A stretch of 64,000 nt of DNA from Squalus acanthias. Its lineage: Eukaryota. Below the pieces are notes generated by a model that worked only from the letters and a program-made list of their open reading frames with translations, had not been told where the DNA came from and did not search any database. Both the position numbers and the translations under genes were made by a program. Of the stretch, positions 1-36,106 are shown in pieces; position 1 is the first letter of the stretch; every line of letters starts with the position of its first letter. The stretch covers positions 147,686,001 through 147,750,000 of the forward strand of contig CM059431.1 of NCBI GenBank assembly GCA_030390025.1. The letters run 5' to 3'.

Positions 1-638
1 GAGGACCACAAGGGACTGGGGGAGTGGAGTGGGTGAACAGGCATCTAGGGGGTAAGATGGGCAGGGACGGAGGGTGAAAAGAAGTAAATACTATCAAGAA
101 TAAGTAATAATATATGAACTTTACTTTTGTAAGGAAAATATCTGCCTGTCTGTGATTTGCGTGGAGTGGAATAAAATGAATGGAAAGATCCCACAGCAGC
201 TTTTGCTCTGAAAACACGCCAAGCACATTCCCCAATAAATCCCAGTCCAAAAAAAATCAAATGGATTATTCTGAAAGTAATTTTAAAAATATATATTATA
301 TATACTTTGTTTTTACAAAAATCTTGTCTTGGGTGGGTTGGGTTGGGAATTAAAGGGAGAGTAAGATCCCACAGCAGCATATGCTCTGAAACACCTCAAA
401 ATATTCCCCGATAAAGTCCAGTCCATAAAAAACAAATGGTTTGATGTATATATGTAGCATTGATTTTTTCAAGTCTTGAAAGTAAGGCAAAGTAAGATCC
501 CTCAGCAGTGCAGTCTGGAATTAAATCAGCATGATCTACTGATGTATAATTTCTGTTTCTTCCAGACATGAGATGCAGTACCAATGCACATGTCAGATAA
601 CTTGAACACAGACATGCTCTGCATGCACACCAGCCTTT

Positions 639-672
<34 letters not shown>

Positions 673-846
673 ACTCACACACACACAGGCCAGCCTGCAA
701 AATTGTCACAAAACACTGTCAGCAGTCAAAGAAAGTTGATTTCTCTCATTGCTCTGCTGTGTTTGGCAGTTGAAAAGCAAAAAAACACTTTTCAGTATCT
801 TATCTTTCATTTTGCGGCCTTAAGAAACAGACTTTCTATTCTGCAT

Positions 847-1094
847 CAAAAGCAAAATACTGCGGATGCTGGAAATCTGAAATTAAAACAGAAACTGTTG
901 GAAATACTCAGCAGGTCAGGCAGCATCTGTGGAGAGAGAGAAAAACAGAGCTAATGTTTCAGCTCGATGACCTATTGTCAGATTCTGGCAAGGTTCTGAC
1001 GAAAGGTGATCGAGCCGAAACGTTAACTCTGTTTCTAGCTCTCTCCACAGATGCTGCCTGATCTGCTGAGTATTTCCAGCATTTTCTGTTTTTA
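847..1094. mobile_element. Penelope-like pLTR-derived palindrome (~110-bp inverted arms); further copies at ~2823-3070, ~7487-7737 and ~8198-8441
   Basis: Arms ~879-982 and ~996-1098 are reverse complements. They are flanked by the direct repeat TTTCTATTCTGCAT (833-846, 1095-1108). The same sequence forms the 3' terminus of the GIY-YIG element at 25378-25481. Confidence 0.8.
992..1028 (+). ncRNA. Minimal type I hammerhead ribozyme-like motif with degenerate stem II; second copy at ~2968-3004
   Basis: GGTT-CTGACGA-aaggtgatcgagcc-GAAA-CGTT-AACT contains the CUGANGA and GAAA cores, a palindromic AACGTT stem III and a short stem I. Confidence 0.55.
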
Positions 1095-1669
1095 TTTCTA
1101 TTCTGCATTTTGTCTTGATTTCATGTGTCTCTCTCCCTGCCTGCCTGCCTGCCTTGTCTTGATTTCAGTGTTGTGGAATAAAAAGAATGCAAAGATCCCA
1201 AAGCAGCTTTAACTGTCAGACAGTCCACAAAGACATTTTTCAGTATCTCACTGACTGACTGTCTATCTTGAAGTGAGGTGAAGTGAAATAAAGTGAAATA
1301 AAGTGATACACAACAGCATTACATGTGGACCAGGCCAGAATGAAATCAATAGAGTTTAATACAACAACAACAGGTAATAAGACAGCACACCACATGTCAC
1401 ACAAACACCAGCTTGTGTCCTCTCTCTCTCTCTCTCTCACACACACACTTACAGCCTGGCCAGCCTGCAAAGGGATGACTGCTGTGTTGGAAGATTAAAA
1501 CGAAAAAGATTCTTTTCAGTATGTTACCTTTTCACTTTGTGGCCTACAGAAACAGGCTTTCTATTCTGCAACTTGCCTTTTGTTTTCATGTCTCTCTCAC
1601 TCTCACTGTCTGTCTGCCACTCACACAGTCTCCCTCCCAAATACATTGAGCTAAAATGTACAATAACAT

Positions 1670-1930
1670 GACACACACTTACACAGACTCTGCAATTTGC
1701 AGAAACACAGCCAGCCAGGCACATTCACACAGACTCTGCAATTTGTAGAAACACAGACACCCAGGCACATACAGACACACTCACATAGACTCTGCAATAT
1801 GCAGAAACACAGACACCCAGGCACATACAGACACGCTCACCTAGACTCTGCAATTTGCAGAAACACAGACACCCATGCACATACAGACACACTCACATAG
1901 ACTGTGCAATTTGTAGAAACTCACACACAC
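1670..1930. repeat. CA-rich minisatellite (~58-bp unit containing GACTCTGCAATTTGCAGAAACACAG); repeated at ~3645-3905
   Basis: About five direct copies of the core are visible. Confidence 0.85.
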
Positions 1931-2617
1931 ATATTTATTTTGAAAGGGATTTTGCAGCCTGGGAGTGTCAATTTTTGATGAAGTCCCTTCCTGTCTGTGC
2001 GTCCATGTTTGATGAGAACAATCAAACAGGAAGAAGTGAAGCCAAGACCCCAGAAATCCGAATCCCCGGGAGGAAATGAAAGCCCGGGAGGGTGAAAAGA
2101 AATAAATACAATCAGGAATAAATAATAACATATATACTTATATATGTAATAAAATGAATGGAATGATGGCACAGCAGCTTTCACTCTGAAAACACGCCAA
2201 GCACATTCCCCAATAAAGCCCAGTCCAAAAAAAATCAAATGGATTATTCTGAAAGTAATTTTAAAAATATATATTATATATACTTTGTTTTTACAAAAAT
2301 CTTGTCTTGGGTGGGTTGGGTTGGGAATTAAAGGGAGAGTAAGATCCCACAGCAGCATATGCTCTGAAACACCTCAAAATATTCCCCGATAAAGTCCAGT
2401 CCATAAAAAACAAATGGTTTGATGTATATATGTAGCATTGATTTTTTCAAGTCTTGAAAGTAAGGCAAAGTAAGATCCCTCAGCTGTGCAGTCTGGAATT
2501 AAATCAGCACGATCTACTGATGTATAATTTCTGTTTCTTCCAGACATGAGATGCAGTACCAATGCACATGTCAGATAACTTGAACACAGACATGCTCTGC
2601 ATGCACACCAGCCTTTG

Positions 2618-2648
<31 letters not shown>

Positions 2649-4570
2649 ACTCACACACACACAGGCCAGCCTGCAAAATTGTCACAAAACACTGTCAGCA
2701 GTCAAAGAAAGTTGATTTCTCTCATTGCTCTGCTGTGTTTGGCAGTTGAAAAGCAAAAAAACACTTTTCAGTATCTTATCTTTCATTTTGCGGCCTTAAG
2801 AAACAGACTTTCTATTCTGCATAAAAAGCAAAATACTGCGGATGCTGGAAATCTGAAATTAAAACAGAAACTGTTGGAAATACTCAGCAGGTCAGGCAGC
2901 ATCTGTGGAGAGAGAGAAAAACAGAGCTAATGTTTCAGCTCGATGACCTATTGTCAGATTCTGGCAAGGTTCTGACGAAAGGTGATCGAGCTGAAACGTT
3001 AACTCTGTTTCTAGCTCTCTCCACAGATGCTGCCTGATCTGCTGAGTATTTCCAGCATTTTCTGTTTTTATTTCTATGCTGCATTTTGTCTTGATTTCAT
3101 GTGTCTCTCTCCCTGCCTGCCTGCCTGCCTTGTCTTGATTTCAGTGTTGTGGAATAAAAAGAATGCAAAGATCCCAAAGCAGCTTTAACTGTCAGACAGT
3201 CCACAAAGACATTTTTCAGTATCTCACTGACTGACTGTCTATCTTGAAGTGAGGTGAAGTGAAATAAAGTGAAATAAAGTGATACACAACAGCATTACAT
3301 GTGGACCAGGCCAGAATGAAATCAATAGAGTTTAATACAACAACAACAGGTAATAAGACAGCACACCACATGTCACACAAACACCAGCTTGTGTCCTCTC
3401 TCTCTCTCTCACACACACACACTTACAGCCTGGCCAGCCTGCAAAGGGATGACTGCTGTGTTGGAAGATTAAAACGAAAAAGATTCTTTTCAGTATGTTA
3501 CCTTTTCACTTTGTGGCCTACAGAAACAGGCTTTCTATTCTGCAACTTGCCTTTTGTTTTCATGTCTCTCTCACTCTCACTGTCTGTCTGCCACTCACAC
3601 AGTCTCCCTCCCAAATACATTGAACTAAAATGTACAATAACATGACACACACTTACACAGACTCTGCAATTTGCAGAAACACAGCCAGCCAGGCACATTC
3701 ACACAGACTCTGCAATTTGTAGAAACACAGACACCCAGGCACATACAGACACACTCACATAGACTCTGCATTTTGCAGAAACACAGACACCCAGGCACAT
3801 ACAGACACGCTCACCTAGACTCTGCAATTTGCAGAAACACAGACACCCATGCACATACAGACACACTCACATAGACTGTGCAATTTGTAGAAACTCACAC
3901 ACACATATTTATTTTGAAAGGGATTTTGCAGCCTGGGAGTGTCAATTTTTGATGAAGTCCCTTCCTGTCTGTGCGTCCATGTTTGATGAGAACAATCAAA
4001 CAGGAAGAAGTGAAGCCAAGACCCCAGAAATCCGGGTCCCCGGGAGGAAATGAAAGCCCGGGAGGGTGAAAAGAAATAAATACAATCAGGAATAAATAAT
4101 AACATATATACTTATATATGTAATAAAATGAATGGAATGATGGCACAGCAGCTTTCACTCTGAAAACATCCCAAGCACATTCCCCAATAAAGCCCAGTCC
4201 AGAAAAAAATCAAATGAATTATTCTGAAAATAATTTAAAAATATAATATATACTTTTTTTTTACAAATGTCTTGTCTTGTTTGGGTTGGGCTGAAGGGGA
4301 GAATAACGTCCCACAACAGGATGTGCCATGAAACACTCCACAAACATTCCGCTATAAAGTCCAGTACAGAAAAATATCAAATGGCTTGATGTATATATGT
4401 AGCCTTGCTTTTTACAAAATTCTTGAAAGAAAGGCAAAGTAAGATCCCACAATAGTGCAGTCTGGAATTAAATCAGTATGATCTAATGGTATATGCTTTC
4501 TGTTTTTTTCAGACATGAGATGCAGTAACAATGCACATGGCAGATAACTTGAACACAGCCAAGCCCTACA

Positions 4571-7275
4571 AAACGGAAAAGGAGGTGGGGTAGCATTGCT
4601 GGTTAAAGAGGAGATTAACACAATAGTAAAGAAGGATATTAGCTCTGATGATGTGGAATCTGTAAGGGTAGATCTGAGAAATACCAAGTGGCAGATATCG
4701 TTAGTGGGAGTTGTATACAGATCCCCAAAAAGTAATGCTGAGGTTGGGGATGGCATTTAACGGGAAATTAGCGACAAGTGCAATAAGGGCACAGCAGTTA
4801 TCATGGGTGACTTTAATCTACATATAGATTGGGCTAACCAAATTAGGAACAATACTTTGGAGGAGGAATTGCTAGAGTGTATACGGGATGGTTTCCTGGA
4901 CCAACATGTCGAGGAACCAACTAGAGATCAGGCCATTTAGACTGGGTATTATGTAATGAGAAGGGATAATTAGCAATCGGGTTGTGCGAGTCCCCTTGGG
5001 GAGCAGCGATCATAATATGATAGAATTCTTCATTAAGATGGAGAGTGAAGTAGTTGACTCAGAGATCAGTGTCCTGAAATTAAATAAAGGAAACTACGAT
5101 GGTATGAGGCGTGTGTTGGCTAGGATGGATTGGGGAGCGTTACTTAAAAGGTTGATGGTGGATAGGCAATGGCAAACATATAAAGATCGCATGGATGAAA
5201 TACAGAATTTGTTCATCCCTGTTTGGCATAAACATAAAACATAAAAGATTACGCAACCGTGGCTAACAAGGGAAATTAGGGATAGCATAAGATCCAAGGA
5301 GAGGACTTATAAATTGGCCAGAAAAAACAGCAAACCTGAGAATTGGGAGCAGTTTAGGATTCAGCAAAGGAGGACAAAGGGATTCATTAAGAGGGGGAAA
5401 ATAGAATATGAGTGTAACCTTGCAGGGAACATAAAAATTGACTGTAAAAGCTTCTATAGATATGTGAAGAGAAAAAGATTGGTGAATTCAAGCGTAGGTC
5501 CCTTGCAGTCAGAATCAGGGGAATTTATAATGGGGAACAAAGAAATGTCTGACCAATTAAATACATACTTTGGTTCTGTCTTCACAAAGAAGGACACAAA
5601 TAAACTCCCAGAGATGTTGGGGAACATAGGGTCTAATGAGAGGGAGGAATTGAATGAAATAAGTATTTGTAGGGAAATGGTGTTAGGCAAATTGACGAGT
5701 TTGAAGGCCGTTAAATCCCCAGGGCCTGATAATCTACATCCTAGGGTAATTAAGGAAGTGGCCCTAGAAATAGTAGATGCATTGCTGCTCATCTTTCAAA
5801 ATTATATAAACTCTGGAACAGTTCCCATGGATTGGAGGATAGCCAATGTAACCCCACTGTTTAAAAAAGGTGGTAGAGAAAAAACAGGGAATTATAGACC
5901 GTTAAGCCTGACATCGGTAGTGGGGAAAATGCTAGAGTCCATTATAAAAGATGTAATAGCAGAGCACTTGGAAAACAGTAACAGGATCGGACAAAGTCAA
6001 CATGGATTTACAAAAGGTAAATCATGCCTGACTAATCTACTGGAATTTTTTGAGGATGTAACTGATAGAATAGATAAGGGAGAACCAGTGGAATTGGTGT
6101 ATTTGGAATTTCAGAAGGCTTTCGATAAGGTCCCGCATAAGAGAATAGCGTGCAAAGTTAAAGCACATGGGATTGGGGGTAAGGTACTGATTTGGATAGA
6201 GAACTGGTTGGCAGACAGGAAGCAAAGAGTTGGAATAAACGGGTCTTTTTCCGAGTGACAGGCAGTGACTAGTGGGATACCGCAGGAATCGGTGCAAGGA
6301 CTCCAGCTATTCACAATATATATTAATGATCTAGATGAGGGAACTAGATGTAATATATCTAACTTTGCAGGCGACACAAAGCTGGGTGGGCGTGTGTGCT
6401 GTGAGGTGGATGCAGAGAAACTCCAGTATGATTTGGACAGGTTGGGTGATTGGGCAGATGCAGTATAATGTTGATAAATGCGAGGTTATCCACTTTGGTG
6501 TCAAAAACAGGAAGACAGATTATTATCTGAACGGCAATAGATCAGGAAAAGGGGAAGTGCAACGAGACCTGGGGGTCCTTGTGCACCAGTCGCTGAAGGT
6601 AAGCATGCAGGTGCAGCAGGTGGTTAAGAAGGCAAATGGTATGTTGGCCTGCATAGTGAGAGGATTCGAGTACAGGAGCAAGGAGGTTTTGCTGCAGTTG
6701 TACAAGGCATAGGTGAGACCACACCTTGAGTAGTGTGCGCAGTTTTGGTCACCTTATCTGAGGAAGGATGTTCTCGCCATGGAAGGAGTGCAGCGATGAT
6801 TTACCAGACTGATACCTCGGACGCCAGGAATGACGTATGAAGAGAGATTCGGGTTGATTAGGCTTATATTTGCTAGTGTTTAGAAGAATGAGAGGGGATC
6901 TCATTGAAACTTATAAAATTCTAACAGTTCTAGACAGGTTATATGCAGGAAGGATGTTCCCGATGGCGGGGGAGTCCAGAACCAGAGGTCACAGTCTAAG
7001 GATAAGGGGCAAGCCATTTAGGACTGAGATGAGGAGGAATTTCTTCACCCAGAGAGTGGTGAACCTGTGGAATTCTCTACCACAGAAGGCAGTTGAGGCC
7101 AATTCATTAAATATATTCAAGAAGGAGATAGATATATTTCTTAAGGCTAAAGGGATCAAGGGATATGGGGAGAAAGCAGGGACAGGGTACTGAGTTTGGA
7201 TGATCAGCCATGATCTCATTAAATGGCGGAGCAGGCTCGAGGGGCCGAATGGCCTACGCCTGCTCCTATCTTCTA
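4571..7275 (+). mobile_element. CR1 LINE, 5'-truncated (APE endonuclease end, RT, 3' tail), disrupted ORF2
   Basis: Fragments translate to SDHNMIEF, KSPGPDNLHPRV, NYRPLSLTSVVGK and [14 protein letters not shown]. The typical tail GGCCGAATGGCCTACGCCTGCTCCTATCTTCTAT is present. There are multiple stops and frameshifts. Confidence 0.95.
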
Positions 7276-8049
7276 TACACACCAGCTTTTGCTGTCTTTC
7301 TCTCTCTCTCACACACACACACACACAGGCCAGCCCGCAAAATTGCCTCAAATCACTGTCAGCAATGAAAGAAAGTTGATTTCTATCATTGCTCTGCTCT
7401 GTTTGGCAGTTTAAAAGCAAACAGACAGTTTTCAGTATTTTATCTTTTAATTTAGCAGCCGGCAGAAACAGGCTTTCTATTCTGCATCAAAAGCAAATGC
7501 TGTGGATGTGGGAAATCTGAATAAATACTGAAAATGCTGGAAATACTCAGCAGATAAGGCAGCATCTGTGGAGAGCGAGCGAGCGTGAAACAGAGTTAAT
7601 ATTTCAACTCGATTACCTTTTGTCAGATTCTGGCAAGTTTCTGACAAAAGATTATCGAGCTGAAACATTTACTCTGTTTCTCTGTATCTCCACTGATGCT
7701 GCCTAACATACTGAGTATTTCCAGCATTTTCTGTTTTTATTTCTATTCTGCTTGTTGTCTTGATTTCATGTGTCTCTCTCACTGCCTGGCTTGTCTTGAT
7801 TTGAGTAGAGTGGAATAAAAATAATGCAAAGATCCCAGAGCAGCTTTTATTGTCAGACAGTACACAGACATTTTTCAGTATCTCATTGACTGCCTGTCTG
7901 TCTTGAAGTGAAGTGAAATGAAATAAAGTGCAATAAAGTCATACACAACAGCATTACATGTGGACTAGGCCAGAATGAAATCAACAGGGTTTAATACAAC
8001 AACAGCAGTTAATAAGACAGCAGACCACATCTCAGACAAACACCAGCTT

Positions 8050-8088
<39 letters not shown>

Positions 8089-8342
8089 GATTTCTCTCAT
8101 TGCTCTGCTGTGTTTGGCAGTTTAAAAGCAAAAAGACACTTTTCAGTATCTTATCTTTTCATTTTGCGGCCTACAGGTACAAGCTTTCTATTCTGCATCA
8201 AAAGCAAAATACTGCTGATGCTGGAATTGGGAATAAAAACAGAAAATGCTGGAAATACTCAGCAGGTCAGGCAGCATCTGTGGAGAGAGAGAGAAAAAGA
8301 GTTAACGTTTCATCTCGATTACCTTTCGTCAGATTCTGTCAA

Positions 8343-8379
8343 GGTTCTGACGAAAGGTCATCGGCCTGAAACGTTAACT
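8343..8379 (+). ncRNA. Minimal type I hammerhead ribozyme motif (best-conserved plus-strand copy)
   Basis: GGTT-CTGACGA-A-AGGTC-atc-GGCCT-GAAA-CGTT-AACT. Stem II pairs fully with one G-U wobble. The predicted cleavage triplet is GUU. Confidence 0.7.
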
Positions 8380-8569
8380 CTGTTTCTCTCTCCACAGATG
8401 CTGCCTGACCTGCTGAGTATTTCCAGCATTTTCTCTTTTCATTTCTATTCTGCATGTTGTCTTGATTTAACGTATCTCTCTCACTGCCTGCCAGCGTGTC
8501 TTGTCTTGATTTGAGTGGAGGGGTATTAGAAGAATGCACAGATCCAACAGCAGCTTTTACTCTCAGACA

Positions 8570-8817: not shown

Positions 8818-9122
8818 ACAACAATAACTTGCATTTATATCACGGCTTTAATGTAATGAAAGGGCACAAGGCAATTAGCAGACAAAATTTGACGCAGCCA
8901 CATAAAGAGATTTTAGGAGAGATGGCCCAAAGCTCGGTGAAACTGGTAGGTTTTAAAAAGCAGTTAAAGGAGGAGGAGAGGTAGGTAGAGCTGCGAAGAG
9001 GTTTAGGAAGGGAATTGCATGGTTTAGGGCCTTGGCAGCTGAAGTCATGACACCAATGTGGAGCAACGAAAATCGAGGATGTGCAACAGGTCAGAGGAGT
9101 GGAGAGATCTCGGAGGGTTGCA
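8818..9122 (-). mobile_element. L2-type LINE 3' relic
   Basis: Begins with an AACTTGCATTTATAT-type tail and is similar to the start of the L2 at 40897-41220 (shared GATCTCGGAGGGTTG). Confidence 0.55.
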
Positions 9123-9873
9123 GGGACACTTGTTAGAGTCCGACTCCTCACTGGGAGAGACACACACTGTACACAGGGACAATTGTTACAGAGTCCGACT
9201 CCTCACTGGGAGAGACACACACTGTACACAGGGACACTTGTTACAGAGTCTGACTCCTCACTGGGAGAGACACACACTGTACACAGGGACAATTGTTACA
9301 GAGTCTGACTCCTCACTGGGAGAGACACACACTGTACACAGGGACACTTGTTACAGAGTCCGACTCCTCACTGGGAGACACACAGACTGTACACAGGGAC
9401 ACTTGTTACAGAGTCTGACTTCTCACTGAGAGACACACACACTGTACACAGGGACACTTGTTACACAGTCCGAATCCTCACTGGGAGAGACACACTGTAC
9501 ACAGGGACACTTGTTACAGAGCCTGACTTCTCACTGGGAGAGACACACACTGTACACAGGGACACTTGTTACAGAGTCTGACTCCTCACTGGGAGAGACA
9601 CACACTGTACACAGGGACACTTGTTACAGAGTCTGACTCCCCATGGGAGAGACACACACTGTACACAGGGACACTTGTTACAGAGTCTGACTCCTCAGTG
9701 GGAGATACTCACACTGTACACATGGACACTTGTTACAGAGTCTGACTCCTCACTGGGAGAGACACACACTGTACACAGAGACACTTGTTACAGAGTCTGA
9801 CTCCTCACTGCGAGAGACACACACTGTGCACAGGGACACTTGTTACAGAGTCCGACTCCTCACTGGGAGAGAC
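9121..9873. repeat. 55-bp minisatellite, ~14 copies
   Basis: Unit CAGGGACACTTGTTACAGAGTCTGACTCCTCACTGGGAGAGACACACACTGTACA; starts at 9174 and 9229 give the period. Confidence 0.95.
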
Positions 9874-10108
9874 ACCCAGGAATACTGAGTGCAATTGTCA
9901 GTGTCCCACTGCAGCCCAGACTAAGCCCCACCCTGGGCCCTTCCTATCTGTGCATTTCCCCAGTGCCCCATTGGGGAACATTCAGCCCCGGATATCCTGC
10001 AGAAGCAGCGCTGTGGGGCCGGGCGGATGAGTCTCGGGACCCTGTGGCTGGCCCTCTGACCTCCCAATGGGGAGATGACGCTCGCTCAGCTTAAATTAAT
10101 TAAGTTAC

Positions 10109-10386: not shown

Positions 10387-11492
10387 CAGATCCGCTCCAG
10401 ACTCCTGCAGGTCAGTATGAGGCGGCGGAGAGCGGGGACAGATCGGTCTGTGAAGGAGTTAAATCTCAGGTCCAGAACCGTCAGTGACCGGTTTGTACTG
10501 AGAGCGGAGGCAAGATCCTCGGCACCAGAATCTGTGAGACCGACATCACGTAGACTGGGGATCAGAGAGAGTAATAACGGGAATCAGAGTAAATCCCCAG
10601 AGTTTATTAATAACACTATTACTAATACTAGTAATAATCTTCAGTGTCAAACATCCAGTTATTATAAACACAATCTCACACAGTCTGGTACTTACTCCAG
10701 TTCCTGTATTTTACAGTCTGGGTTCCTCATAGCCGCAGACAACAGTTTCACTCCTGAATCGCCCAGTTTATTATAACCCAGGTTCAGATCCGTCAGTGAC
10801 TGGTTTGTACTGAGAGCGGAGGCGAGATCCTCGGCACAAGAATCTGTGAGACCGACACCAGCCAACCTGCGGATCAGAGAGAGATAAATAAGAGGAATCA
10901 TAGTAAATCCCCAGTGTTTAATACAAACACTATTACTGATACTAATAATAATGTACAGTGTGTCGACATCCAGTTATTATAAACACAATCGCAGAGAGTC
11001 TGGTACTTACCCCAGTCTCTGTATTTTACATTCCGGGTTCCTCAGAGGGGCTGACACTAGTTTCATTCCTCAATCTCCCAGTTTATTTTTACTCAGGGTC
11101 AGATCCGTCAGTGACCGGTTTATAATGAGAGCGGAGACGAGATCCCCGGCACAAGAATCTGTGAGACCGACAGCATACAGCCTGGGATCAGAGAGAGACA
11201 GAACAGGAATCAGAGTAAATCCCCAGTGTTTATTAATGACACTATTATATACACTAATAATAATGTGCAGTGGCAGACATTCAGTTATTATAAACACAAT
11301 TTCACAGAGTCTGGTACTTACCCCAGTCTCTGTATTTTACATTCCGTGTTCCTCAGAGGGGCTGACAATAGTTTCACTCCTGAATCTCCCAGTTTATTTT
11401 TACTCAGGTCCAGATCCGTCAGTGAGCGGTTTGTACTGAGAGCGGAGGCGAGATCCTCGGCACAAGAACCTGTGAGACCGACATCATACAGC
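10387..11492 (-). pseudogene. Four tandem LRR exons (168, 171, 171, 171 bp) in a ~311-bp exon+intron repeat
   Basis: They translate as LxxVGLTDSCAEDLASALSTNRSLTDLxLxxNKLGDSGVKLLSAxLRNPxCKIQxL, all phase 2, with gtaagt/gtgagt donors. The introns are also mutually similar. Confidence 0.92.
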
Positions 11493-11524
11493 CTGAGGAT
11501 CAGAGAGAAATAACAGGAATCAGA

Positions 11525-15597: not shown

Positions 15598-16940
15598 CTG
15601 GGCGGGTCGGGTGCGGCCGGGGTTGGTGGCGGGTCGGGTGCGGCCGGGGGCGGGTCGGGAGCGGCCGGGGTCGGTGGCGAGTCGGGTGCGGCCGGGGGCG
15701 TGTCGGGTGCTGCCGGGGTCGGTGGCGGGTCGTGAGCGGCCGGGGTCGGTGGCGGTGGGGTCGGTGCTGGGTCGGGTGCGGCCGGGCTCGGTGGCGGGTC
15801 GGGAGGGGCCGGTGGCGGGTCGGGTGCGGCTGGGGTCGGTGCTGGCTCGGGTGCGGCCGGGGTCGGTGGCGGGTCGGGTGCGGCCGAGGTCGGGGGCGGA
15901 TCGGATGCGGTCAGTGCCGGGTCGAGTGCTGCCCGGGTCGGAGGCGGATCGGATGCGGTCAGTGCCGGGTCGGGTGCGGCCGGGGTCGGATCGGATGCGG
16001 TCAGTGCCGGGTCGGGTGCGGCCGGGGTCGGTGCCGGGTCGGGTGCGGCCGGGGTCGGTGGCGGGTCGGGTGCGGCCGGGGTCGGTGGCGGATCGGGAGC
16101 GGCCGGGGTCGGTGGCGGGTCGGGAGCTGCGGCGAGTCGGGAGCGGCCGGGGTCGGTGGCGGGTTGGGTGCAGCCAGGGTCGGTTGAGGGTCGGGTGCAG
16201 CCGGGGTCGGTGGTGGTGGGGTCGGTGCCGGTTCGGGTGCGGCCGGGCTCGGGTCGCTGGCGGGTCGGGTGCGGCCCGGGGTCGGTGGCGGGTCGGGAGG
16301 GGAAGGGGTCGGTGGCGGGTCGGGGTCGGGTCGGGTGCGGCCGGGGTCGGTGGCAGGGTCGGTTGCGGCCGGGGTCGGTGGCGGGTCGAGTACGGCCGGG
16401 GTCGGTGGCGGGTCGGGTGCGGCCGGGGTCGATGGCGGGTCGGGTGCGACCAGGGGTCGGTGGCGGTCGGGGTCGGTGGCGGGTCGGGAGCGGCCGGGGT
16501 CGGTGGAGGGTCGGGAGCGGCCGGGGTCGGTGGCGGGTCGGGTGCGGCCGGGGTAGGTTGAGGGTCGGGTGCGGCCGGGGTCGGGTGCAGCCGGGATCGG
16601 TGGCGATGGGGTCGGTGCTGGGTCGGGTGCGGCCGGGGTCGGGTCGCTGGCGGGTCGGGTGCGGCCCGGGGTCGGTGTCAGGTCGGGAGCGGCCGGGGTC
16701 GGTGGCGGGTCGGGTGCAGCCGGGGTCGGTGGCGGTGGGGTCGGTGCCGGGTCGGGTGCAGCCGGTGTCGGTGGCGATGGGGTCGGTGCCGGTTCGGGTG
16801 CGGCCGGGGCCGGGTCGCTGGCCGGGTCGGGTGCGGCCCGGGGTCGGTGGCAGGTCGGGAGCGGCCAAGGTCGGTGGCGTGTTGGGTGCGGCTGGAGTCG
16901 GTGGCGGGTCGGGCCCGGCCGGGGTCGGTGGCGGGTCGCG
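15598..16940. repeat. Extremely G/CpG-rich minisatellite (~27-bp GGGTCGGGTGCGGCCGGGGTCGGTGGC)
   Basis: Dozens of direct imperfect copies; strongly G-skewed on the + strand. Confidence 0.95.
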
Positions 16941-18593: not shown

Positions 18594-21500
18594 GGGCCAG
18601 AAATTGATCTGGCTCTGTTCCCGCGGGTGTAAGGAGCAGGCGCGGTAATACATACCGCGTCTGCCGTTTCGTCTTTTCCACGGAGAAAATTCATCTTCTG
18701 GCTGATTGAGTGCAGGGCACCGTATGACGTCACACTGCCCTGCAGCGCAGCGTGCGCGTTGCATCGCGTACGATGTGGAGTGAAGACACGCCCATTAAGG
18801 TCTCTTTTCCATATGCCACGCCCCCGATTTTTTTCTCCACTGAAACCATTGTACAGCTGCTGAAGACACAGTTTTCTCACTGTTTTAGGTGGAATTTGCA
18901 GTAAGTAGGATTTAAATGCATGGTTTTGTAAACTTTTAAAGATTTTTAGTATAATTTGAGTAATGTTAAACATTTGCAAAGAGATTTAAAGTAATTTAAA
19001 TAGTTTTAAAAGCACAGAAATCATTTTTTTCAGAGATTTAACTGTTTATAATCAGCAAACGAAAATGGCTGCTATCAGCACTATCCAATTTATCAAAAGA
19101 ACACAGAATTTCAGTGATGATGATCTCCGTACACTTCTTGACGAGGTAGAATCGAAACGTTCACGGATAATTGGAACTCAGAAGTCCAAGCCGCCGCGAA
19201 AAGGCCAAATGGCAGCGTGGAAAGAGGTTGCTCAAAGTGTGAGCGCAACCTCGACCATTCCACGTACAGCTGAGCAATGTCGCAAAAAATTCAGCGATTT
19301 ATATCGAACGCTGAAGGTTTGTATAGTTATAACAAAAGTCAATGTTAAAATGTCTTAACATTTAAAATGAAAAGCCTTGAAAAAGTGTTTGTTTGCTAAG
19401 CTGAGTTAACTGAAGTCACAAGATGCTCCCATAAATTTTTATGGCTTTTGTAGCCAGGCAAGTCTCATAAAATGCTAATGTCATCTTGGTTGAAATGCTT
19501 TGAGTTGCTTACTGAGTCCTCTTGAAGGACTGTTGCAGAAACCCAATGTGGAAGTGCAGCTTAGTAAAATAAATGAGTCTCTTGAAGGACTCATGCGAAT
19601 AATTTCTGCTGCAATTACTGTGACTCCATCAGAACCAACCTTACCTGCTCCCAGCGCAGAATCAGTGCAGGTCCAAGAGCCACCAACGATGATGCAATCA
19701 AGAAAGCGCAAGAGACGTTAGGGTGTTGCATATTCCACAATGCACATCCATTGACTTTCAGGAATAGTTTATTTGTGGTTAAATTTTTCAAGTGTTTAAT
19801 TTTTAGTTTTATTTAAAACTTACATGTTTACATTTTTCTTTATATATATATTTGACACTGAAACTGAAAGTTAGCTTTTCATTGAAAAAGTACAGCCTTT
19901 AGTCACATTATAAAAATTCAAATTGTTTATTTTCACAAAAAAAATTGAACATTTAAACTTGTTTACATTTAGGAAAGAGTTATTTCCCATCTTGAATGTC
20001 TTTACTGCATTAACGAAGCAAAAAAGTTACTGAGAACTGTTAACAAATTTTTTAAAAAACTATTTCTGTTTACGATTGTTTACAAAGTTGAAAAGTAGCT
20101 AGTTAACATTGAAAAGTTATAAACTATGTAAAGCAACAATGAACCTCAGAAGTCTGTAATGCTGCAATAAAAGTGCACTGTTTCACTTTAAATTGTGTTT
20201 GTACCTTTATTTGCCTTGCTGGTGGAGAGGGAGGGGGAGGGGGGAGAGGGGGAGGGGCAGAGGGAGAGGGAGGGGGAGGGGGAGAGGGAGGGGGAGGGGG
20301 AGAGGGAGAGGGAGGTGGAGAGGGAGAGGGAGAGGGAGGGGGAGAGGGAGAGGGAGAGGGAGGGGGAGGGGGAGGGGGAGATGGAGGGGGAGGGGCAGAG
20401 GGAGGGGGAGGGGGAGGGGGAGAGGGAGGGGGAGGGGGAGAGGGAGGGGAGGGGGAGAGGGAGGGGGAGAGGGAGGGGGAGAGGGAGGGGGAGAGGGAGG
20501 GGGAGGGGGAGCGGGAGGTACAAGGCGACACTACCTCGTGAAGGTCTTGGCTACCAGCTGCTCCCGAGCAGCCTTACTTTGAGCAGCAGTTGGCTCTTCC
20601 CCATCATGCCTTCCCACAGGCACATTGGCATTGTCCACGTCCTCCATTTCTGCAGGTAATTCATCTGCAGCGTTAAGGGTCAGTCCTTCCTGCAGGGCAA
20701 AGTTATGCAAAGCACAACAGGCCACCACAATCTTTGCCACTTTCTGAGGAGAATACTGCAAGGTCCCCCCTGACCTGTCCAGGCACCGGAAGCGTGATTT
20801 CAGAACACCAATTGTCCTCTCCACCACTTGCCGTGTGGACACGTGTGCCTGGTTGTATCTCTCCTGAGCCTCATTATTGGTCTTGCGGTAGGGAGTCATC
20901 AGCCATGGTCTTAGCGGGTAGCCCTTGTCGCCCAATATCCATGCGGATCCTGGAGGCAATGCGTTGAGGACGCCATATAAGTCAGAGTTACGGAGGACGA
21001 TTGCAAAAGGGCATCTTTCTCTCACACAGGCTTCCTCCTCAAACTGAAAGTTGTAATGAAAAAATGGAAATAGTTGTTAAAGTAACTTTAGTTAAGTGAG
21101 TGGCTATAAAATCAGGTCAGGCTATGGTGGGATACGTGCGCTATCAGCTTGGGAACACATCTACCCGCCACACGGCCCTAGCTGATTTTCCAAAACTGTA
21201 ACATTTTCATAAATTCATACATACATACATACATACTTACTTACTTACTCATTTTCATCTTTAAAACTTTTTGAAACGTAAACAGTTCATTTTTAAACTT
21301 TCATTTTCATAGATAGATACCTAAATATGCCTTGTACACACCCACAGTTGCTATACTACTCCAAATGGTCAAAACCCGTTTTTAAAAATTTATTTTTAAA
21401 ACTCTTAACTTATATAAGACTTCATTTAAAACTTTTGTGTCTTTCAGATTTAAAAAACTCACCTCAGTAGCCACACTCCAAAAGGATTTCTTCCTCCTAC

Positions 21501-25377: not shown

Positions 25378-26680
25378 TGAAATAAAAACAGAAAATGCTG
25401 GAAATACCCAGCAGGTCAGGCAGCATCTATAAAGAGAGAAACAGAGTTATTGTTTCAGGTCGAGGACCCTTCGTCAGAACTGGAAAAAGTTACAGATGTA
25501 ACAGATTTTTAAGCAAGTGTCGGGACAGGGAAAGGTGGAGGGAGCGGAGGAAAGAACAAAAGGGAAGGTCTGTGATAGGGTGAAGACAGGAGAGATTAAA
25601 AGACAAAAGGGATGATGGTGCAAGGCAAAAGGAGATGGTAATGGGACAAGTTAAAACTCAAAAGATGAATCTAGATGAGGTGTGAATGGCAGAATCATCA
25701 ACAGCTGTCATGCGACAGGAAAACAAAGGGAACAGGAAAAACAATAATAAAAAAAATAAAATGGCTGCTGAGTTTATAGTCTGAAATTGTTGAACTCGAT
25801 GTCGAGTCCAGAAGGCTGTAAAGTGCCTAATTGAAAGATGAAGTGCTGTTCCTCGATCTTATGTTGTACTTTGTTAGAAGAGAGTAAGAGGCCGAGAATG
25901 GAGAGATCAGAGTGGGAGTGGAGCAGAGAATTAAAGTGATAGGCGACCAGAAGCTCGGGGTTACACTTACGGACTGAGCGGAGGTGTTCCGCAAAGCGGT
26001 CCCCCAATCTGCGTTTTATCTCCCCAATATAGAGGAGACCGCATCGAGAGCAGCGAATACAGTATATTAAATTGCAAGAAGTACAAGTAAATCGCTGTTT
26101 CACCTGGAAGGAGTGCTTGGGGCTCTGGACAGTGAGTAGGAAAAGGTAAAAGGGCAGGTGTTGCATCTCCTGTGCTTGCATGGGAATGTACCGTGGGAAG
26201 GGGAAGGGGTGTTGGGTGTGATTGAGGAGTGGACCAGGGTGTTGTGCAGGGAGCGGTCCCTTCAGAATGCTGAAAGGGGAGGGGAGGGGAAGTTGTGTTT
26301 GGTGGTGGGACCACGCTGGAGGTGGCGGAAATGGCGGAGGATGATCCGTTGAATGCGGAGGCTGGTGGGGTGAAAGGTTAGGACAAGTGGAACCATATCG
26401 TGGTTCCGGGAGAAATGGGAAGTGGTGAGACCAGAAGTGCGGGAAATAGAATGGACACGGTCAAGAGCCGTGTCAACCACGGTAGAGGGGAATCCTCGGT
26501 TGAGGAATAAGGAAGACATGTCGGAAGCACTAATATGGAACGTGGTATCGTCAGAGCAGATGCGGCAGAGACAGAAAAACTGGGAGAATGGACCAGCGTC
26601 CTTACAGGAAGCGAGGTGGGAGGAAGTGTATTCCAGGTAGCTGTGGGAGTCAGAGGGCTAACAGTGAATGTTTGTCAATA
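25378..26680 (-). mobile_element. Penelope-like retroelement 3' portion (RT thumb remnant, GIY-YIG endonuclease, 3' pLTR)
   Basis: ORF 25774-26181 reads FTCTSCNLIYCIRCSRCGLLYIGEIKRRLGDRFAEHLRS...LGTLQPSGLDIEF; an upstream fragment reads FLNRGFPSTVV...PLVLTFHP. Confidence 0.92.
25445..25481 (-). ncRNA. Hammerhead-like motif in the Penelope 3' pLTR (stem III mutated)
   Basis: Minus strand reads AGTT-CTGACGA-A-GGGTC-ctc-GACCT-GAAA-CAAT-AACT, on the same sense as the GIY-YIG ORF. Confidence 0.55.
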
Positions 26681-27774: not shown

Positions 27775-28405
27775 CAAACGAGAGCGGCCCTGGGTGGAGC
27801 CTGAGCGAGGACACCGAGGATTTAAAGAGCGGGGGAGAGAGAGAGCGGCCCAGACTCACCGGCAGCAGCAGCAGCCCTGGGTGGAGCCTGAGCGAGGACA
27901 CCGAGGATTTAAAGAGCGGGAGAGAGAGCGGCGCTGGGTGGAGCCTGAGCGAGGACACCGAGGATTTAAAGAGCGGGGGAGAGAGAGAGCGGCCCAGACT
28001 CACCCGCAGCAGCAGTGGCCCTGGGTGGAGCCTGAGCGAGGACACCAAAGATTTAAAGAGCGGGAGAGAGAGCGGCGCTGGGTGGAACCTGAGCGAGCAC
28101 ACCGAGGAATTAAAGAGCGGGGGAGAGAGAGAGCGGCCCAGACTCAACCGCAGCAGCAGCGGCCCTGGGTGGAGCCTGAGCGAGGACACGAAGGATTTAA
28201 GCAGCAGGCGAGCGAGCGAGGCCCAGACTCACTGGCAGCAGCAGCAGCCCTGGGTGGAGCCTGAGCGAGGACACCGAGGATTTAAAGAGCGGGAGAGACA
28301 GCGGCCCTGGGTGGAGCCTGAGCGAGGACACGAAGGATTTAAGCAGCAGGCGAGCGAGCGAGGCCCAGACTCACCGGCAGCAGCAGCGGCCCTGGGTGGA
28401 GCCCT
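27775..28405. repeat. Composite tandem repeat (core CTGGGTGGAGCCTGAGCGAGGACACCGAGGATTTAAAGAGCGGG) at the CR1 5' end
   Basis: About nine copies of the core with alternating long and short spacers. Confidence 0.9.
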
Positions 28406-28746
28406 GAGTACGGTTTAAACAGAGTGCTGCGAGTTGGGAATTGGTTCTTACTTTACACCAAGGAAGGAGTCCGGAACGGGAGCAGTCAAACAACAACAAA
28501 TGCGAAACCGCTAAAGTGACGTCACAACCAGGGAGGGAGCTGATTGGTAAGTAGGACCTGGTGAGTATTTCTACAGTCCAGTCGTTAAAGTAAAAGTAAT
28601 GTCTCTAGTTTAGAGTAAGTAGTGTTTAAAGGGAAGTAATGTTCACAGTGTATTTAATATTCTTTAATTTAAAGGAAGTAAAGGGAGTACATTAAGGGCA
28701 GGACATGGCAGGGCAGCTCGGCTGTGTGGAGTGCTCCTCCTGTGCT

Positions 28747-32100: not shown

Positions 32101-34369
32101 CCAGTCTTCAGGCACCTCCCCTGTGGCCAGAGAGGAGCTGAAAATTTGTGTCAGAGCCCCTGAAATCTCCTCCATTGCCTCACACAGCAGCCTGGGATAC
32201 ATCTCGTCTGGGCCTGGGGATTTATCCACTTTTAAGCCCGCTAAAACCGCTAATACCTCCTCCCTCTCGATGCTGATTTGTTCAAGTATATCACAATCCC
32301 CCTGCCTGATTTCTATGCCGACATCATCCTTCTCCACAGTGAACACAGATGCAAAATATTCATTTAAAACGGCTCTACACACAGATTGCCACTTTGGACC
32401 CTAATGGGCCCTACTCTTTCCCAAATTATCCTCTTGCCCTTAATATACTTATAAAACACCTTGGGATTTTCCTTTATTTTGCCCGCCAGTATTTTTTCAT
32501 GCCCTCTCTTTGCTCTCCTAATTTCTTTTTTATGTAACCCCCTGCACTTTCTATACTCTTCTAGGGCTTCCACTGTTTTTAGTCCTTTGTATCTGCCAAA
32601 AGCCTCCATTTTGTTCCCTAATCCATTCTTGTATATCCCTTGACATCCAGGGTTCCCTGGACTTGTTGGTCCCACCTTTGACCTTTACGGGAACATGTTG
32701 TCACTGTACTCTCTCTATTTCCTTTCTGAATGACTCCCACTGCTCTGATGTGGATTTTCCTACAAGTAGCTGATCCCAGTCCACTTTAGCCAGATCCTGC
32801 CTTATTTAGAACCTTTATTTCCGGTCCATCTTTGTCCTTTTCCATGACTACTTTAAATCTCACCAAATTATGGTCACTGTCACCAAAATGCTCTCCTACT
32901 GACACTTCTACCACTTGCCTAGAATTAGGTCCAGTACCACCCCCTCTCTTGTAGGACATTCTGCATGCTGGCTCAAAAAGCTCTCCTGGATGCACTTTAA
33001 GAATTCCGCCCCTTCTCAGCCTTTCACACTCTGACTATCCCAGTTAATATTGGGGAAGTTGAAATCCCCTACTATTATTACCCTATTATTTCTACACTTC
33101 TGAGATTTGACTACATATCTGTTCCTCTATCTCCCCGACTGTTTGGGGGCCTATAGTACACTCCCAGCAAAGTGCTTGCCCCCTTTTTGTTTTCAAGTTC
33201 TACCCATATGGCCTCATTCGAGGAACCTGCTAAGACATCATCCCTCCTTACAGCAGTAATTGACTCCTTGATTAATATTGTGACACCCCCTCCTCTTTTA
33301 CACCCCCCTCTGTCTCGCCTGAAGATTATATACCCCGGAATATTGAGCTGCCAGTCCTGCCCCTCCCTCAACCGTGTCTCTGTGATAGCAACAATATCAT
33401 ACTCCCATGTGTTCAACACCTTTAATTCATCTGCCTTACTCGTAAGACTTCTTGCATTAAAATAAATGCCATCCAGCCTTGCCATACTCCCTTGCGCCGT
33501 TACATATTTGCTGTGCCTTCCAGACTGACTTGTTTTTTCCTCTATATTTGGCTTTGCATCACCCCCTACTATAGCTCCACTCCGTCTCCCATCCCCCTGC
33601 CAAGTTAGTTTAAACCCCCCTCAACAGCACTAGCAAACCTCCCCGCAAGGATGTTGGTCCCTTTCCGGTTCAGGTGCAACTCGTCTGATATGTACAGGTC
33701 CCACCTTCCCCAGAAACAGACCCAGTGATCCAGAAAACTAAAGCCCTCCCTCCTGCACCAACTCTTTAGCCACGCATTCATCTGCTCTATCCTCCTATTC
33801 CTATACTCACTAGCACTTGGCACCGGGAGTAATCCGGAGATTACAACCTTTGAGGTCCCGCTTTTTAATCTGCTACCTAACTCTCTAAATTCTTGTTGCA
33901 GGACCTCATCCCTCTTTCTACCTATGTCGTTCGTACTAATGTGAACCACGACCTCTGACTTTTCGCCCTCCCCCTTCAGAATGCCCTGCAGCCGTTCAGT
34001 GACATCCTTGACCCTGGCACCAGGGAGGCAACATACCATCCTGGAGTCAGGTCTGCGGCTGCAGAAAGGCCTGCCTGCACCCCTCATAATTGAGTCTCCT
34101 ACCACTATTGCCCTTCCACTCTTACTCCTCCCCACTTGTGCAGCTGAGGATAAAGACTGTAAAATCCCTACTTGTTCACAAGGATCCATTTTAGATTCTC
34201 CAGTCCATAGGGAATTTCTAACCGATCCTTTTATTATTGGTCATATTTGTGTTGAATCTTCTTCTCTCTGGTTTAACTGAACTGTTTGTTTCCCTTCATT
34301 ACGGAGCAACAACACAATCCGTGACTGTTCTACAATTCGCCCAACAGTTAGAGACAAATAAACAGTTAC

Positions 34370-36106
34370 CTCAACACCCGGCATTTGTGCAGTACGGGTC
34401 CCAGCCGCTGGAGTCCCTCACACTGAATGGAGCAGAAGTCCAGATCGAGGTGTTTTACTGTATCACAGAGTCCAATGACATGAGACAGGACCGCACAGTC
34501 AATCGGGGTCAATGCCATGTCACTAAATGTGAGTGAGTTCACAGATCCCACTGTGGTCCGAGCCAGTGCTTTATTCTGAGACTCAAACAGGTAGTGGAGT
34601 GTGTTCAGGAGGTTCCTTTTACCAGTTTCACTCTCTGTGTCTCCAATCTGTCCCTCAACCTTCTCCTTCACCCAGTCAATCACTCGGCAGGTGGTTTGAT
34701 GAAGAAATGGACCCAGAAACTCCTTCAGGGGCCGAGCTGACTGAGGAGAGGAGAGACCAGCAACAAAACGGAGAAATATCTCAAATCGCCCATCTTCCTC
34801 GCTGTGGGCTTCTCTGAGGAGTTTCCGGATGTCCCCGGGATCTGGAGTCAGGAATTGTGCGAGTGCGGCTACAAACTCTTGGATGGTGAGGTGCGGGAAT
34901 GTGTACACCACGCTCTGGGCAGAATCATTCCTCTCCAAAAGTTCCATCATGAACCCGACAGGAACTGGGAAGGTTGCAGATTGTACTTGATCAAATCTCC
35001 ATTTCTAAACACAATCTTCTTCTCGGAGACTCCTGTGAAGGCCATCTCACCAAGCTTCAGTAACACATCATGGGGGCTTTCAATCTCTCGGCCATGGTTT
35101 TTCAGAATGTTGTAGATATAGTAGGAATATAGTTGGGTGATGGTCTTGGGAACTCGCTGCTTATTCCTGTCATTTTGTGTAAAGAAGGGACCCAGTGACA
35201 GACCGAGGATGAAGCAGTAGGAAGGGTTGAAGCTCATAGTGTACAGGATCTCGTTCTCCTCCACGTGTTTGAAAACAGCTGCTGCCACCGTCTGATCTTC
35301 AAAAAACTTGTTGAAATATTCCATCCGTTCTTCACCAACAAATCCCAGGATTTCAGCCCAGACACTGATCTCAGCCTTTTCCAATAAATGTAATGCAGTG
35401 GGGCGGCTGGTCACTCGCACTGAACATCCTGGGAGCAGCCTGTGCTGTATTAAACTGTACACAATGTCAGACACTTCACACCAGTCTTCAGGATCTGTGC
35501 ACATGTGCTGAGGTTCTGTATTTCTCCGATTGTCAGCAAAATCGATACTTACCTTGAATTCATCCAAACCATCGAATATAAACAGCAATCCCTCTGGGTT
35601 CTTCCAGAGCTCTCCCAGAATATTCCCAAAGTAAGGATACAGATCCAGTATCAGATTCCTCAGGTTTATTCTACAGTTAATAGCGTTCAAATCCCGGAAT
35701 TTAAAGCTGAAAACAAATTGAAAATGTGGGTATATTTTCCCTGTGGCCCAGTCATGAACAATCTTTTGTACCTTTGTTGTTTTTCCAATCCCCGGGACTC
35801 CGCTCACTGCTCTTGAACTCCCAGAATTGGATTTTCTCCGGGAAAAACTGCTCTGGAACAATTGAACAGTTCGGATTTTTTCCAGTTCTCTCCGGAGATG
35901 TTTCTCTCTCCACTCTTCATGGTCTCGGCCTCTTGCCAGCAGTTCATGTTCTACAAGTGTCCGATCTCGAACAGTAGAAATGACCGTTAGCTCAGCGTAT
36001 CAATCAACCAGCTGGAAAATCTTAACCTTCTCCTTTATTAGGATAGTGTTCACTCTCAGTGTTTCAGTTTGTACCCGCAGTGTTTCCTTGTGTTTCTGTT
36101 GAACAT
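34370..36106 (-). pseudogene. NLR large NACHT/HD/WHD exon
   Basis: DVQQKHKETLRVQTETLRVNTILIKEKVKIFQLVD*YAELTVIS...GVPGIGKTT...LLFIFDGLDEF...VTSRP...YTFPHLTIQEFVAAL...LHKCRVLR|gtaact. Confidence 0.95.

Follow-up and report, generated by a model that had tools for sequence, protein, structure and literature searches.

Penelope-like element (PLE) insertions typically combine head-to-head inverted pLTRs with a one-sided tail of 30–40 bp and a target-site duplication (Arkhipova et al. 2013, PMC3846280; Craig et al. 2021, PMC8557442). Four palindromes in 64 kb of Squalus acanthias DNA, the whole stretch analysed and hereafter the window, resemble the complex insertions of EN+ PLEs described in these papers: an inverted, 5′-truncated and shorter copy stands head-to-head with its partner, a one-sided tail (32 nt), a duplication and an empty site are present, and a longer relative has the C-terminal GIY-YIG domain and CX2–5CxxC linker (here CX4CxxC) of the Neptune/Nematis type. 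Unlike the described cases, both arms are reduced to the hammerhead-bearing last ~105–135 nt, the duplication measures 14 bp rather than the 8–10 bp of the rotifer cases in those papers, and the insert was later multiplied inside a host repeat.

The motifs in the arms are like the minimal type I hammerheads described from PLEs of metazoans (Cervera and De la Pena 2014, PMC4209133), with the same core boxes, a 4-bp stem I, one unpaired base between A9 and position 10.1, a palindromic 15.2–16.2 and no loop 3. Opposite-strand motif pairs 100–700 bp apart were already noted there; those studied here lie 12 nt apart and seven of eight motifs are broken. Stem II has 5 bp, compared with 7–8 bp in Schistosoma families, and the conserved G-C pair at 10.1–11.1 is replaced by A-U in the best copy and by A-U and G-U in dispersed ones. 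Non-LTR retrozymes and newt satellite 2 (Cervera and De la Pena 2020, PMC7229834; Li et al. 2026 preprint) likewise have type I motifs in low-GC tandem repeats and PLE ancestry. By contrast, the present units span 0.7–4.7 kb of mostly host DNA, their motifs are minimal, antisense-paired and mostly broken, with no two consecutive complete ones, and they trace to one insertion event instead of a multimeric insertion. A literature search with most subscription papers outside its coverage returned no shark fold-back PLE insertion inside tandem repeats.

Four palindromes from a single insertion

The array is made up of two 1,976-bp units that are 99% identical, an older unit split by a LINE and a 711-bp unit. 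Its features, and those of its relatives in the window, are as follows; the limits of the inserts P1–P4 are set by the sequence between target-site duplications.

167–2144, plus strand: first host repeat unit, ~1,976 bp, carrying P1
833–846 (left) and 1095–1108 (right), plus strand: 14-bp target-site duplication of P1, matching flanks
847–1094, unstranded: P1, a fold-back PLE insertion with 32-nt tail, left arm, 12-nt centre and right arm
1558–1571, plus strand: empty paralogous target site in P1's unit, a single 14-mer with 1 mismatch
2823–3070, unstranded: P2, a copy of P1 (247 matches, 2 mismatches)
2809/3071, 7474/7740 and 8185/8442: 14-bp duplications at P2–P4, 0–1 mismatch
3532–3545: twin empty site, paralogous, 14-mer with at most 1 mismatch
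4560–7275, plus strand: 5′-truncated CR1-like LINE splitting the third, older unit (84–88%); RVT_1 E 2.6e-15
7488–7739, unstranded: P3, the most diverged copy, 86–87% identical to P1 and P4
8199–8441, unstranded: P4, in the 711-bp short unit
25379–26657, minus strand: 3′ remnant of a longer family member, with frameshifted ORF, 3′ UTR and hammerhead-bearing end
44275–44373, minus strand: dispersed solo end fragment that begins at hammerhead C3 and has a 10–11-bp target-site duplication of its own
63801–63865, minus strand: short dispersed fragment of the same end

The first-pass annotation had placed all four palindromes to within 1–2 nt; its term tandem repeat overstated the regularity of the units, as palindrome sites are spaced 1,976, 4,669 and 706 nt apart, and its ~250-bp palindromes were too long, as the paired part covers ~217–225 nt. 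Over 170–2140, units 1 and 2 are separated by 17 substitutions and by two microsatellite indels of 2 nt each. Host repeat makes up ~87% of the unit, and the first unit holds a 56-bp minisatellite and older sub-repeats of ~178 bp. Homology ends near 8569, and a match at 69–121 suggests that the array may extend upstream of its visible 8.5 kb. The LINE, whose clade we take to be CR1, has additional copies elsewhere in the window.

In P1 the left arm is the PLE end on the minus strand and the right arm the same end on the plus strand (879–982 and 995–1098; 104 nt, 88% complementary across a 12-nt spacer), and the tail (847–878) is unpaired and confined to the left side. Each palindrome is predicted to form 87–99 pairs on either strand. 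For the two of four palindromes compared with shuffles, fold energies were −158.4 and −158.7 kcal/mol, whereas the shuffles averaged −59.8 and −62.5 (z = −22.5; matched by 0 of 200 shuffles).

All four inserts share the 14-bp duplication. Across 64 kb, the 14-mer occurs ten times with at most one mismatch, eight times flanking the inserts and twice as an empty site; two mismatches add two unrelated matches. The sequences around the empty site at 1558–1571 are 85% (left) and 77% (right) identical to the flanks of P1. Because the duplication and the centre are shared and an empty site exists, the four inserts go back to one insertion that was copied later with host DNA, and what the array amplified was thus host DNA carrying a passenger. 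The common duplication and centre rule out independent insertions. A MITE or DNA-transposon origin is ruled out by the one-sided tail, the 14-bp duplication and the identity of the sequence as a PLE end.

That the arms are PLE end sequence is seen from the 25.4–26.7 kb remnant, which links the end repeat to an endonuclease. Its ORF carries the cysteine linker in 26136–26261 (minus strand), followed by a GIY-YIG domain, and ends at 25774; its hammerhead-bearing end (25481–25379) is 90% identical to the P4 right arm. The Pfam GIY-YIG match to 25774–26657 is weak and below cut-off (E 0.013). The same region has 11 homologues at E ≤ 1e-13, RT plus GIY-YIG proteins among them (E values 2e-31 and 1e-35; P0008 has both RVT_1 and GIY-YIG). 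An RT core is absent from the remnant, and the portion of the window that was inspected contains none of this family; against PDB sequences, the endonuclease remnant gave no matches. The palindrome arms are 89–92% identical to the three dispersed fragments in the window, and an exact-pattern scan for more family copies found none in metagenome contigs and none in viral contigs. The Penelope identity and the reading of the motif as a minimal type I hammerhead with an ACGU palindrome, both proposed from the first reading, are supported.

Hammerhead motifs and their decay

Each arm carries one motif:

949–985, minus strand: P1 left arm; G8>A, G16.2>A, stem I 2/4
992–1028, plus strand: P1 right-arm minimal hammerhead; core intact, stem II 2/5, stem I 4/4, GUU at 1022–1024
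2925–2961, minus strand: P2 left arm; identical to the P1 left-arm motif
2968–3004, plus strand: P2 right arm; stem II 3/5
8300–8336, minus strand: P4 left arm; core intact, stem II 2/5, stem I 2/4
8343–8379, plus strand: P4 right arm, the sole intact motif in the array; GUU site at 8373–8375

Both P3 motifs have G8>A, and the right one also has a broken ACGU. The right-arm arrangement CUGACGA-A-stem II-GAAA-CG-UU is present in P1, P2 and P4 and lost in P3; three of four right arms retain both core and GUU site, and their stem I is 4/4. At 8343–8379 the core is accompanied by a complete stem I (4/4), one inserted A, the ACGU palindrome and, as first noted, a fully paired stem II (5/5, one U-G), closed by A-U rather than G-C. 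The RNA 5′ ends foreseen at 1025, 3001 and 8376 are well placed because H17, the residue at the cleavage site, lies at 1024, 3000 and 8375.

We used a minimal-hammerhead descriptor comprising CUGANGA, GAAA, NUH, stems I and II, a base inserted after A9 and a palindromic 15.2–16.2. One arm of eight passed (1/4 on the plus strand, 0/4 on the minus strand), and 8343–8379 was the only strict match in the whole window; at least one match occurred in 4 of 200 dinucleotide shuffles of the background test. Rfam matched none of its hammerhead families to the window at E ≤ 1, nor to 8330–8460 at E ≤ 10. Its matches to miRNA families were dropped as generic hairpin matches far below gathering scores.

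Changes are concentrated at CpG positions (7/36, against 39/581 elsewhere; Fisher p 0.013, with the majority of eight non-independent arm rows from the same window as the reference), and methylation is their probable cause. G8, missing from four of eight arms, and the ACGU palindrome lie in CpG and were lost first. By contrast, the 10 non-CpG invariant core positions are unchanged (0/60 arm-positions, against 20/395 downstream; binomial p 0.044, Fisher p 0.09), which counts against passive decay at p of about 0.04–0.09; adding G8 gives 3/66 and p 1.0. At one stem II position and in the CT tract, the P4 right arm departs from the other seven towards the dispersed copies. Simple decay does not explain this well.

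The inserts diverge like their flanks (identities of 0.866, 0.918 and 0.861, against 0.874/0.899, 0.928/0.843 and 0.884/0.866 for the flanks in the same order). Left and right arms are 0.875 identical both within (266/304) and across (532/608) palindromes, and this lack of arm co-evolution rules out selection for hairpin pairing. None of six branches in the arm tree is well supported; shared changes conflict (left arms, two for P3 and P4 and one for P1 and P3; right arms, three columns for P1 and P3), and the flanks are uninformative.

Transcript folding and competing readings

Whichever strand is transcribed, the antisense arm precedes the motif. Stems I and II of 8343–8379 have predicted pair probabilities of 0.0000 in the full palindrome and also in a prefix ending just beyond the motif. 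Forcing the hammerhead fold of P4 would cost 2.7 kcal/mol in the isolated motif, 32 in the prefix 8198–8385 and 41 in the full palindrome. The 8330–8400 RNA once suggested for cleavage assays would be a poor construct because stem I is already disfavoured there (pair probability ~0.01). The predicted fold supports the caution that the hairpin sequesters the ribozyme. The companion proposal, that periodic ribozymes cut a read-through RNA into units, finds no support, given the broken motifs, the irregular spacing and the predicted pairing of the intact motif to its antisense arm. These folding models support sequestration and do not support unit-length self-processing; PLE hammerheads can be protein-assisted (PMC11167929), which equilibrium folding leaves out. 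A search of sequencing runs with one unit listed 24 runs, none with half of its words and no RNA run among them. Five DNA runs of one organism contained 0.20–0.41 of the words, and the rows with small shares carry no weight here.

Could the array nevertheless work like a retrozyme or satellite 2, with plus-strand read-through RNA cut by dimeric hammerheads into linear or circular unit RNAs that drive amplification or were selected with it? The four right-arm motifs lie on one strand, most with core and cleavage site, and their non-CpG core is unchanged; moreover, vertebrate non-LTR retrozymes have been proposed to derive from PLE ends, with chondrichthyan ones reported (bioRxiv 10.64898/2026.07.22.740005). 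Against this, palindrome spacing compares poorly with units of 150–450 bp (PMC7229834) or 51–972 bp (bioRxiv 10.64898/2026.07.22.740005), only the 706-nt interval falling within the latter range; the unit is largely host repeat, its own antisense copy precedes every motif, and even intact minimal hammerheads cleave poorly in vitro, dimers included (PMC4209133). Stem II is complete in a single copy, and, as far as the window covers the array, no two consecutive units have a complete hammerhead. In a hammerhead dimer each site needs the core-plus-stem II half of the partner copy, so 8376 has no competent partner in the visible array. We therefore give this reading almost no credence.

A hairpin-RNA locus, kept because its fold-backs of ~100 bp yield dsRNA for dicing, with the small RNAs directed at a highly abundant PLE family, would draw on the extensive predicted pairing, the presence of four hairpins in 7.6 kb and arms 79–88% identical to two dispersed family copies. 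It is quite improbable given the absence of excess arm identity within palindromes and the flank-like divergence; the CpG o/e of 0.18 in 170–4570, against 0.50 for the window, fits long-term methylation, though it is not proof of silence. A broader proposal holds that the locus is transcribed, either as such a hairpin-RNA source or because the 8343–8379 half, which gene conversion by a dispersed copy may have refreshed, is freed by a PLE protein or helicase and cuts the P1 and P2 GUU sites to release a 1,976-nt RNA. This has only a very slim chance of being right; if true, it would make the array a kilobase-size, antisense-gated retrozyme made of host DNA. Somewhat less remote, but still unlikely, is a false P1/P2 duplication, created when two haplotypes were assembled in tandem. 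Identity of 99% over ~1,970 bp resembles an allelic difference and the window has an assembly gap at 52272–52471, but the block limits are sharp amid older duplications of the same period (84–88%), as unequal crossing-over predicts. Even then, three old copies would remain and the origin would be unaffected.

Origin and meaning of the array

We favour, with a probability of roughly 0.86, a passively duplicated fold-back insertion of a Neptune-type PLE whose hammerheads are decaying and which is expected to make no unit RNAs. In one event, the element probably entered a single sub-repeat within an old and degenerate host tandem repeat. Only its last ~135 nt (the end repeat plus the 32-nt tail) would have been copied by target-primed reverse transcription, an inverted second copy of ~105 nt would have been placed head-to-head in front, and repair would have left the 14-bp duplication. 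Host-DNA duplications then presumably copied the insert as a passenger, in two older rounds and a third, of 1,976 bp, that is very recent, an order we infer, and the LINE would have split one unit later. The hammerheads were probably inherited from the parent's end repeat and would be decaying through recurrent deamination of the CpGs at G8 and in the ACGU palindrome. In a transcript of either strand the antisense arm would emerge first and the motif would zip into the 87–99-bp hairpin as it appears; unit-RNA self-processing is therefore not expected, and cleavage in vivo is improbable on this model.

The structure is a standard fold-back PLE insertion of an already described kind, an ordinary fossil. 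As it stands, the array is a tidy example of that structure with little significance of its own. Its value lies in teaching, as one insertion has given eight sister hammerhead copies that show motif decay without selection. Retrozyme screens for a motif inside a tandem repeat may catch such passengers, locked by their own antisense arm. Were the locus transcribed in one of the ways considered above, it would mark a way in which a PLE stump can give rise to a long RNA that processes itself or acts in silencing.

Palindromes and hammerhead motifs

Four palindromic inserts, P1 to P4 (847–1094, 2823–3070, 7488–7739 and 8199–8441), lie in the array of host repeat units at ~167–8569, and the right (R) and left (L) arm of each carries a minimal type I hammerhead motif, on the plus and minus strand, respectively. 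The first-pass annotation had placed the palindromes, the hammerhead motif and the predicted 5′ ends correctly; its ~250-bp palindrome is present, with only ~220 nt paired and the remaining 32 nt forming a one-sided tail. An inverted-repeat search returned 104-nt arms, 88% complementary around a 12-nt spacer, for P1 (879–982/995–1098) and P2 (2855–2958/2971–3074); in the copies near 7.5 and 8.2 kb the arms were split, again around a 12-nt spacer. Fold energy was ~−158 kcal/mol (z = −22.5) for P4 and P1, and 0 of 200 shuffles were equally stable.

A descriptor of the minimal hammerhead (core boxes, stem II of at least 4 bp, stem I of at least 3 bp and a U-H site) fully matched only 8347–8375 in 64 kb, with at least one match in 4/200 dinucleotide shuffles. 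Without stems it matched six sites (shuffle mean 0.73, maximum 4), of which four are array arms, one is the 44.3-kb solo copy and one is unrelated. Rfam scans of the whole window and of the P4R region named no hammerhead family. The motifs were in the following states.

P1R, plus strand: core intact, stem II 2/5
P2R, plus strand: stem II 3/5
P3R, plus strand: G8>A, ACGU broken, stem I 2/4
P4R, 8343–8379, plus strand: all intact
P1L and P2L, minus strand: G8>A, ACGU broken, stem I 2/4
P3L, minus strand: G8>A, stem II 3/5, stem III word still palindromic
P4L, minus strand: core intact, stem II 2/5, stem I 2/4

Cleavage at GUU is slower than at GUC. GUU is among the NUH sites listed as active (PMC3138052), and G8C abolished cleavage of the anole hammerhead of a Penelope-like element (PLE; PMC11167929). 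P4R has A-U at 10.1–11.1, without the G10.1–C11.1 pair described as highly conserved by Cervera and De la Pena (PMC4209133).

Changes were counted in six of the eight arms (P2 twins dropped) against the majority of all eight rows. CpG positions had changed more often than others (7/36 versus 39/581, p = 0.013). Because each shared change enters the tally repeatedly, the motif count (20/198 with four centre columns excluded, 26/222 with them) against that downstream (20/395, p = 0.025) shows no more than that conservation of the motif is not better. Ten non-CpG core positions were unchanged (0/60; binomial p = 0.044, Fisher p = 0.09), which speaks against passive decay; with G8 included, 3/66 had changed (p = 1.0).

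Seven arms share a G giving a stem II mismatch and a longer CT tract. The sole intact arm, P4R (8343–8445, plus strand), has a pairing C and a short CT tract, resembling the dispersed family fragments, a possible gene conversion; the 63.8-kb fragment also carries the mismatch-making G. P4R may have been converted by a dispersed copy or by another arm, or its state may reflect parallel change; 0/6 branches of the arm tree were supported.

Penelope-like origin of the insert

The arms are 89–92% identical to three dispersed fragments (25385–25480, 44283–44373 and 63801–63859), two of them within larger features.

25379–26657, minus strand: Neptune-type PLE remnant, 5′-truncated, with frameshifted GIY-YIG ORF, 3′ UTR and hammerhead end
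44275–44373, minus strand: solo PLE end starting exactly at hammerhead C3, with a 10–11-bp target-site duplication, within a LINE fragment

The 25385–25480 fragment is preceded by the 3′ UTR and ORF remnant, whose Pfam match to GIY-YIG was weak (E = 0.013, below cut-off). A search with the last 119 residues yielded 11 homologues out of 145 candidates, the best five from rays, a skate and a shark (60–68% identity); one homologue, P0008, has RVT_1 and GIY-YIG domains, and each of the two pieces of the remnant aligns to it (E = 2e-31 and 1e-35). Upstream of the nuclease domain lies a CX4CxxC motif, of the linker type reported by Craig et al. for the Neptune and Nematis clades (PMC8557442). Together, the dispersed copies, this remnant with its reverse transcriptase homologue and the linker point to the array arms being the end repeat (pLTR) of a Neptune-type PLE, and the host is probably a cartilaginous fish. 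The left arm also reads open for 26 codons from an ATG through the tail, a candidate ORF start that fits the report of first ORF codons held in pLTR plus tail (PMC3846280).

The hammerhead end of the 25379–26657 remnant has stem II 5/5 and ACGU broken. At its stem I 5′ side a pyrimidine run ends in CAG, much as at the intron end that was mapped to this position in D. virilis (PMC4209133), and both arms of the array insert start at about this point. The solo end starts upstream of the cleavage site, which means that the 3′ cleavage product did not serve as its template.

The array insert comprises a main 5′-truncated copy with the 32-nt tail, a shorter inverted copy head-to-head and a target-site duplication. 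This layout is called typical and ascribed to self-priming by Arkhipova et al. (PMC3846280) and drawn as the usual arrangement by Craig et al. (PMC8557442); Frangieh et al. associate the tail with reverse transcription from two start sites (PMC11167929). The insert shows the features of a PLE fold-back insertion that were tested. A 14-bp motif flanks 4/4 inserts with 0–1 mismatch (833/1095, 2809/3071, 7474/7740 and 8185/8442) and occurs singly, insert-free, at 1558 and 3532; the sequences beside these lone copies match the P1 flanks at 85% (left) and 77% (right) identity. A filled site and its paralogous empty site coexist inside one unit. The 12-nt centre is common to P1–P4, save one base in P3 and one in P4. 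We consider it highly probable (about 0.86) that a single PLE fold-back insertion was later copied as a passenger within the host repeat.

Array structure and surroundings

The insert makes up 248 of the 1,976 bp of a unit otherwise built of older ~178-bp sub-repeats (75–89% identity), a 56-bp minisatellite and microsatellites; the non-PLE part (1096–2822) had no match past 8,700 within the window. A LINE with an RVT_1 domain (~4560–7275) interrupts the third unit, the unit holding P4 is 711 bp long, and array homology stops near 8569. Homology at 69–121 suggests that the array may continue upstream. CpG observed/expected is 0.18 in the host repeat (167–4570) versus 0.50 window-wide. Several unrelated tandem arrays mark the region as prone to local duplication.

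9121–9875, 10465–11524, 15601–16938, 27780–28408 and 39560–40785: unrelated tandem arrays, periods 55, 311, 27, 57–229 and 41 bp
20531–21076, minus strand: close partial copy of the Harbinger-like ORF at 59829–61001
33605–34240, minus strand: SGNH/GDSL esterase-like ORF (Lipase_GDSL_2, E = 2.6e-14), presumably a LINE ORF1 fragment
34366–35999, minus strand: NLR-type exon (NACHT, E = 2.1e-33, and NOD2 winged helix), split across two reading frames
52272–52471: assembly gap, 200 N
59829–61001, minus strand: Harbinger-like transposase ORF, 390 aa (DDE_Tnp_4, E = 1.8e-41)
61959–62034, minus strand: tRNA-Asn(GTT) gene or pseudogene, T arm imperfect

From 170 to 2140 the first unit differs from the next by 17 substitutions and two 2-nt indels, and identity is 86–88% past ~2200; that P1 and P2 are a false duplication is unlikely, and would be compatible with passenger copying.

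Predicted folding and alternative roles

All energies and pair probabilities are equilibrium predictions, which leave protein assistance out of account; the anole ribozyme cleaved only with the PLE protein present (PMC11167929). The two motifs of each palindrome face outward, and the antisense arm is therefore made first on either strand. For P4R, imposing both stems while keeping the core open would cost 2.7 kcal/mol in isolation, 5.0 in 8330–8400, 7.1 in the right arm alone and 32 in the prefix 8198–8385. In the full palindrome the penalty reaches 41 kcal/mol, and stem probabilities are 0.0000 there and in that prefix, as the annotation foresaw in suggesting that the hairpin may sequester the ribozyme. 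Across six prefixes of increasing length, the mean probability that a motif base is paired with the left arm is 0.76–0.89.

A role as a source of functional hairpin RNA is very unlikely. Each of P1–P4 is predicted to form 87–99 pairs on either strand, but left and right arms are no more alike within a palindrome (266/304) than across palindromes (532/608), at 0.875 identity in each case, and there is therefore no arm co-evolution to keep pairing. Insert divergence (identities 0.866 for P1–P3, 0.918 for P1–P4 and 0.861 for P3–P4) falls inside the range of adjacent flanks (0.843–0.928).

The annotation had also proposed retrozyme-like cutting of read-through RNA to unit length, which we regard as extremely improbable. 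Dimeric type I hammerheads assemble each site from the core and stem II of one copy and the U-H site of the other; P4R could therefore do no more than cut P1 or P2 in trans, and its own site lacks a partner in the visible array. Cleavage sites are 1,976, 4,669 and 706 nt apart. Intact minimal hammerheads were inactive in vitro as monomers and of low activity as dimers (PMC4209133), and 8/9 Xenopus dimer elements did not cleave (bioRxiv 10.64898/2026.07.22.740005). Non-LTR retrozymes have a short unit, a complete motif in two consecutive units and an accessible hammerhead fold (bioRxiv 10.64898/2026.07.22.740005; PMC7229834), whereas the visible array has neither of the first two nor, by prediction, the third. 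On present evidence, the array would not work in the manner of satellite 2 or of a retrozyme.
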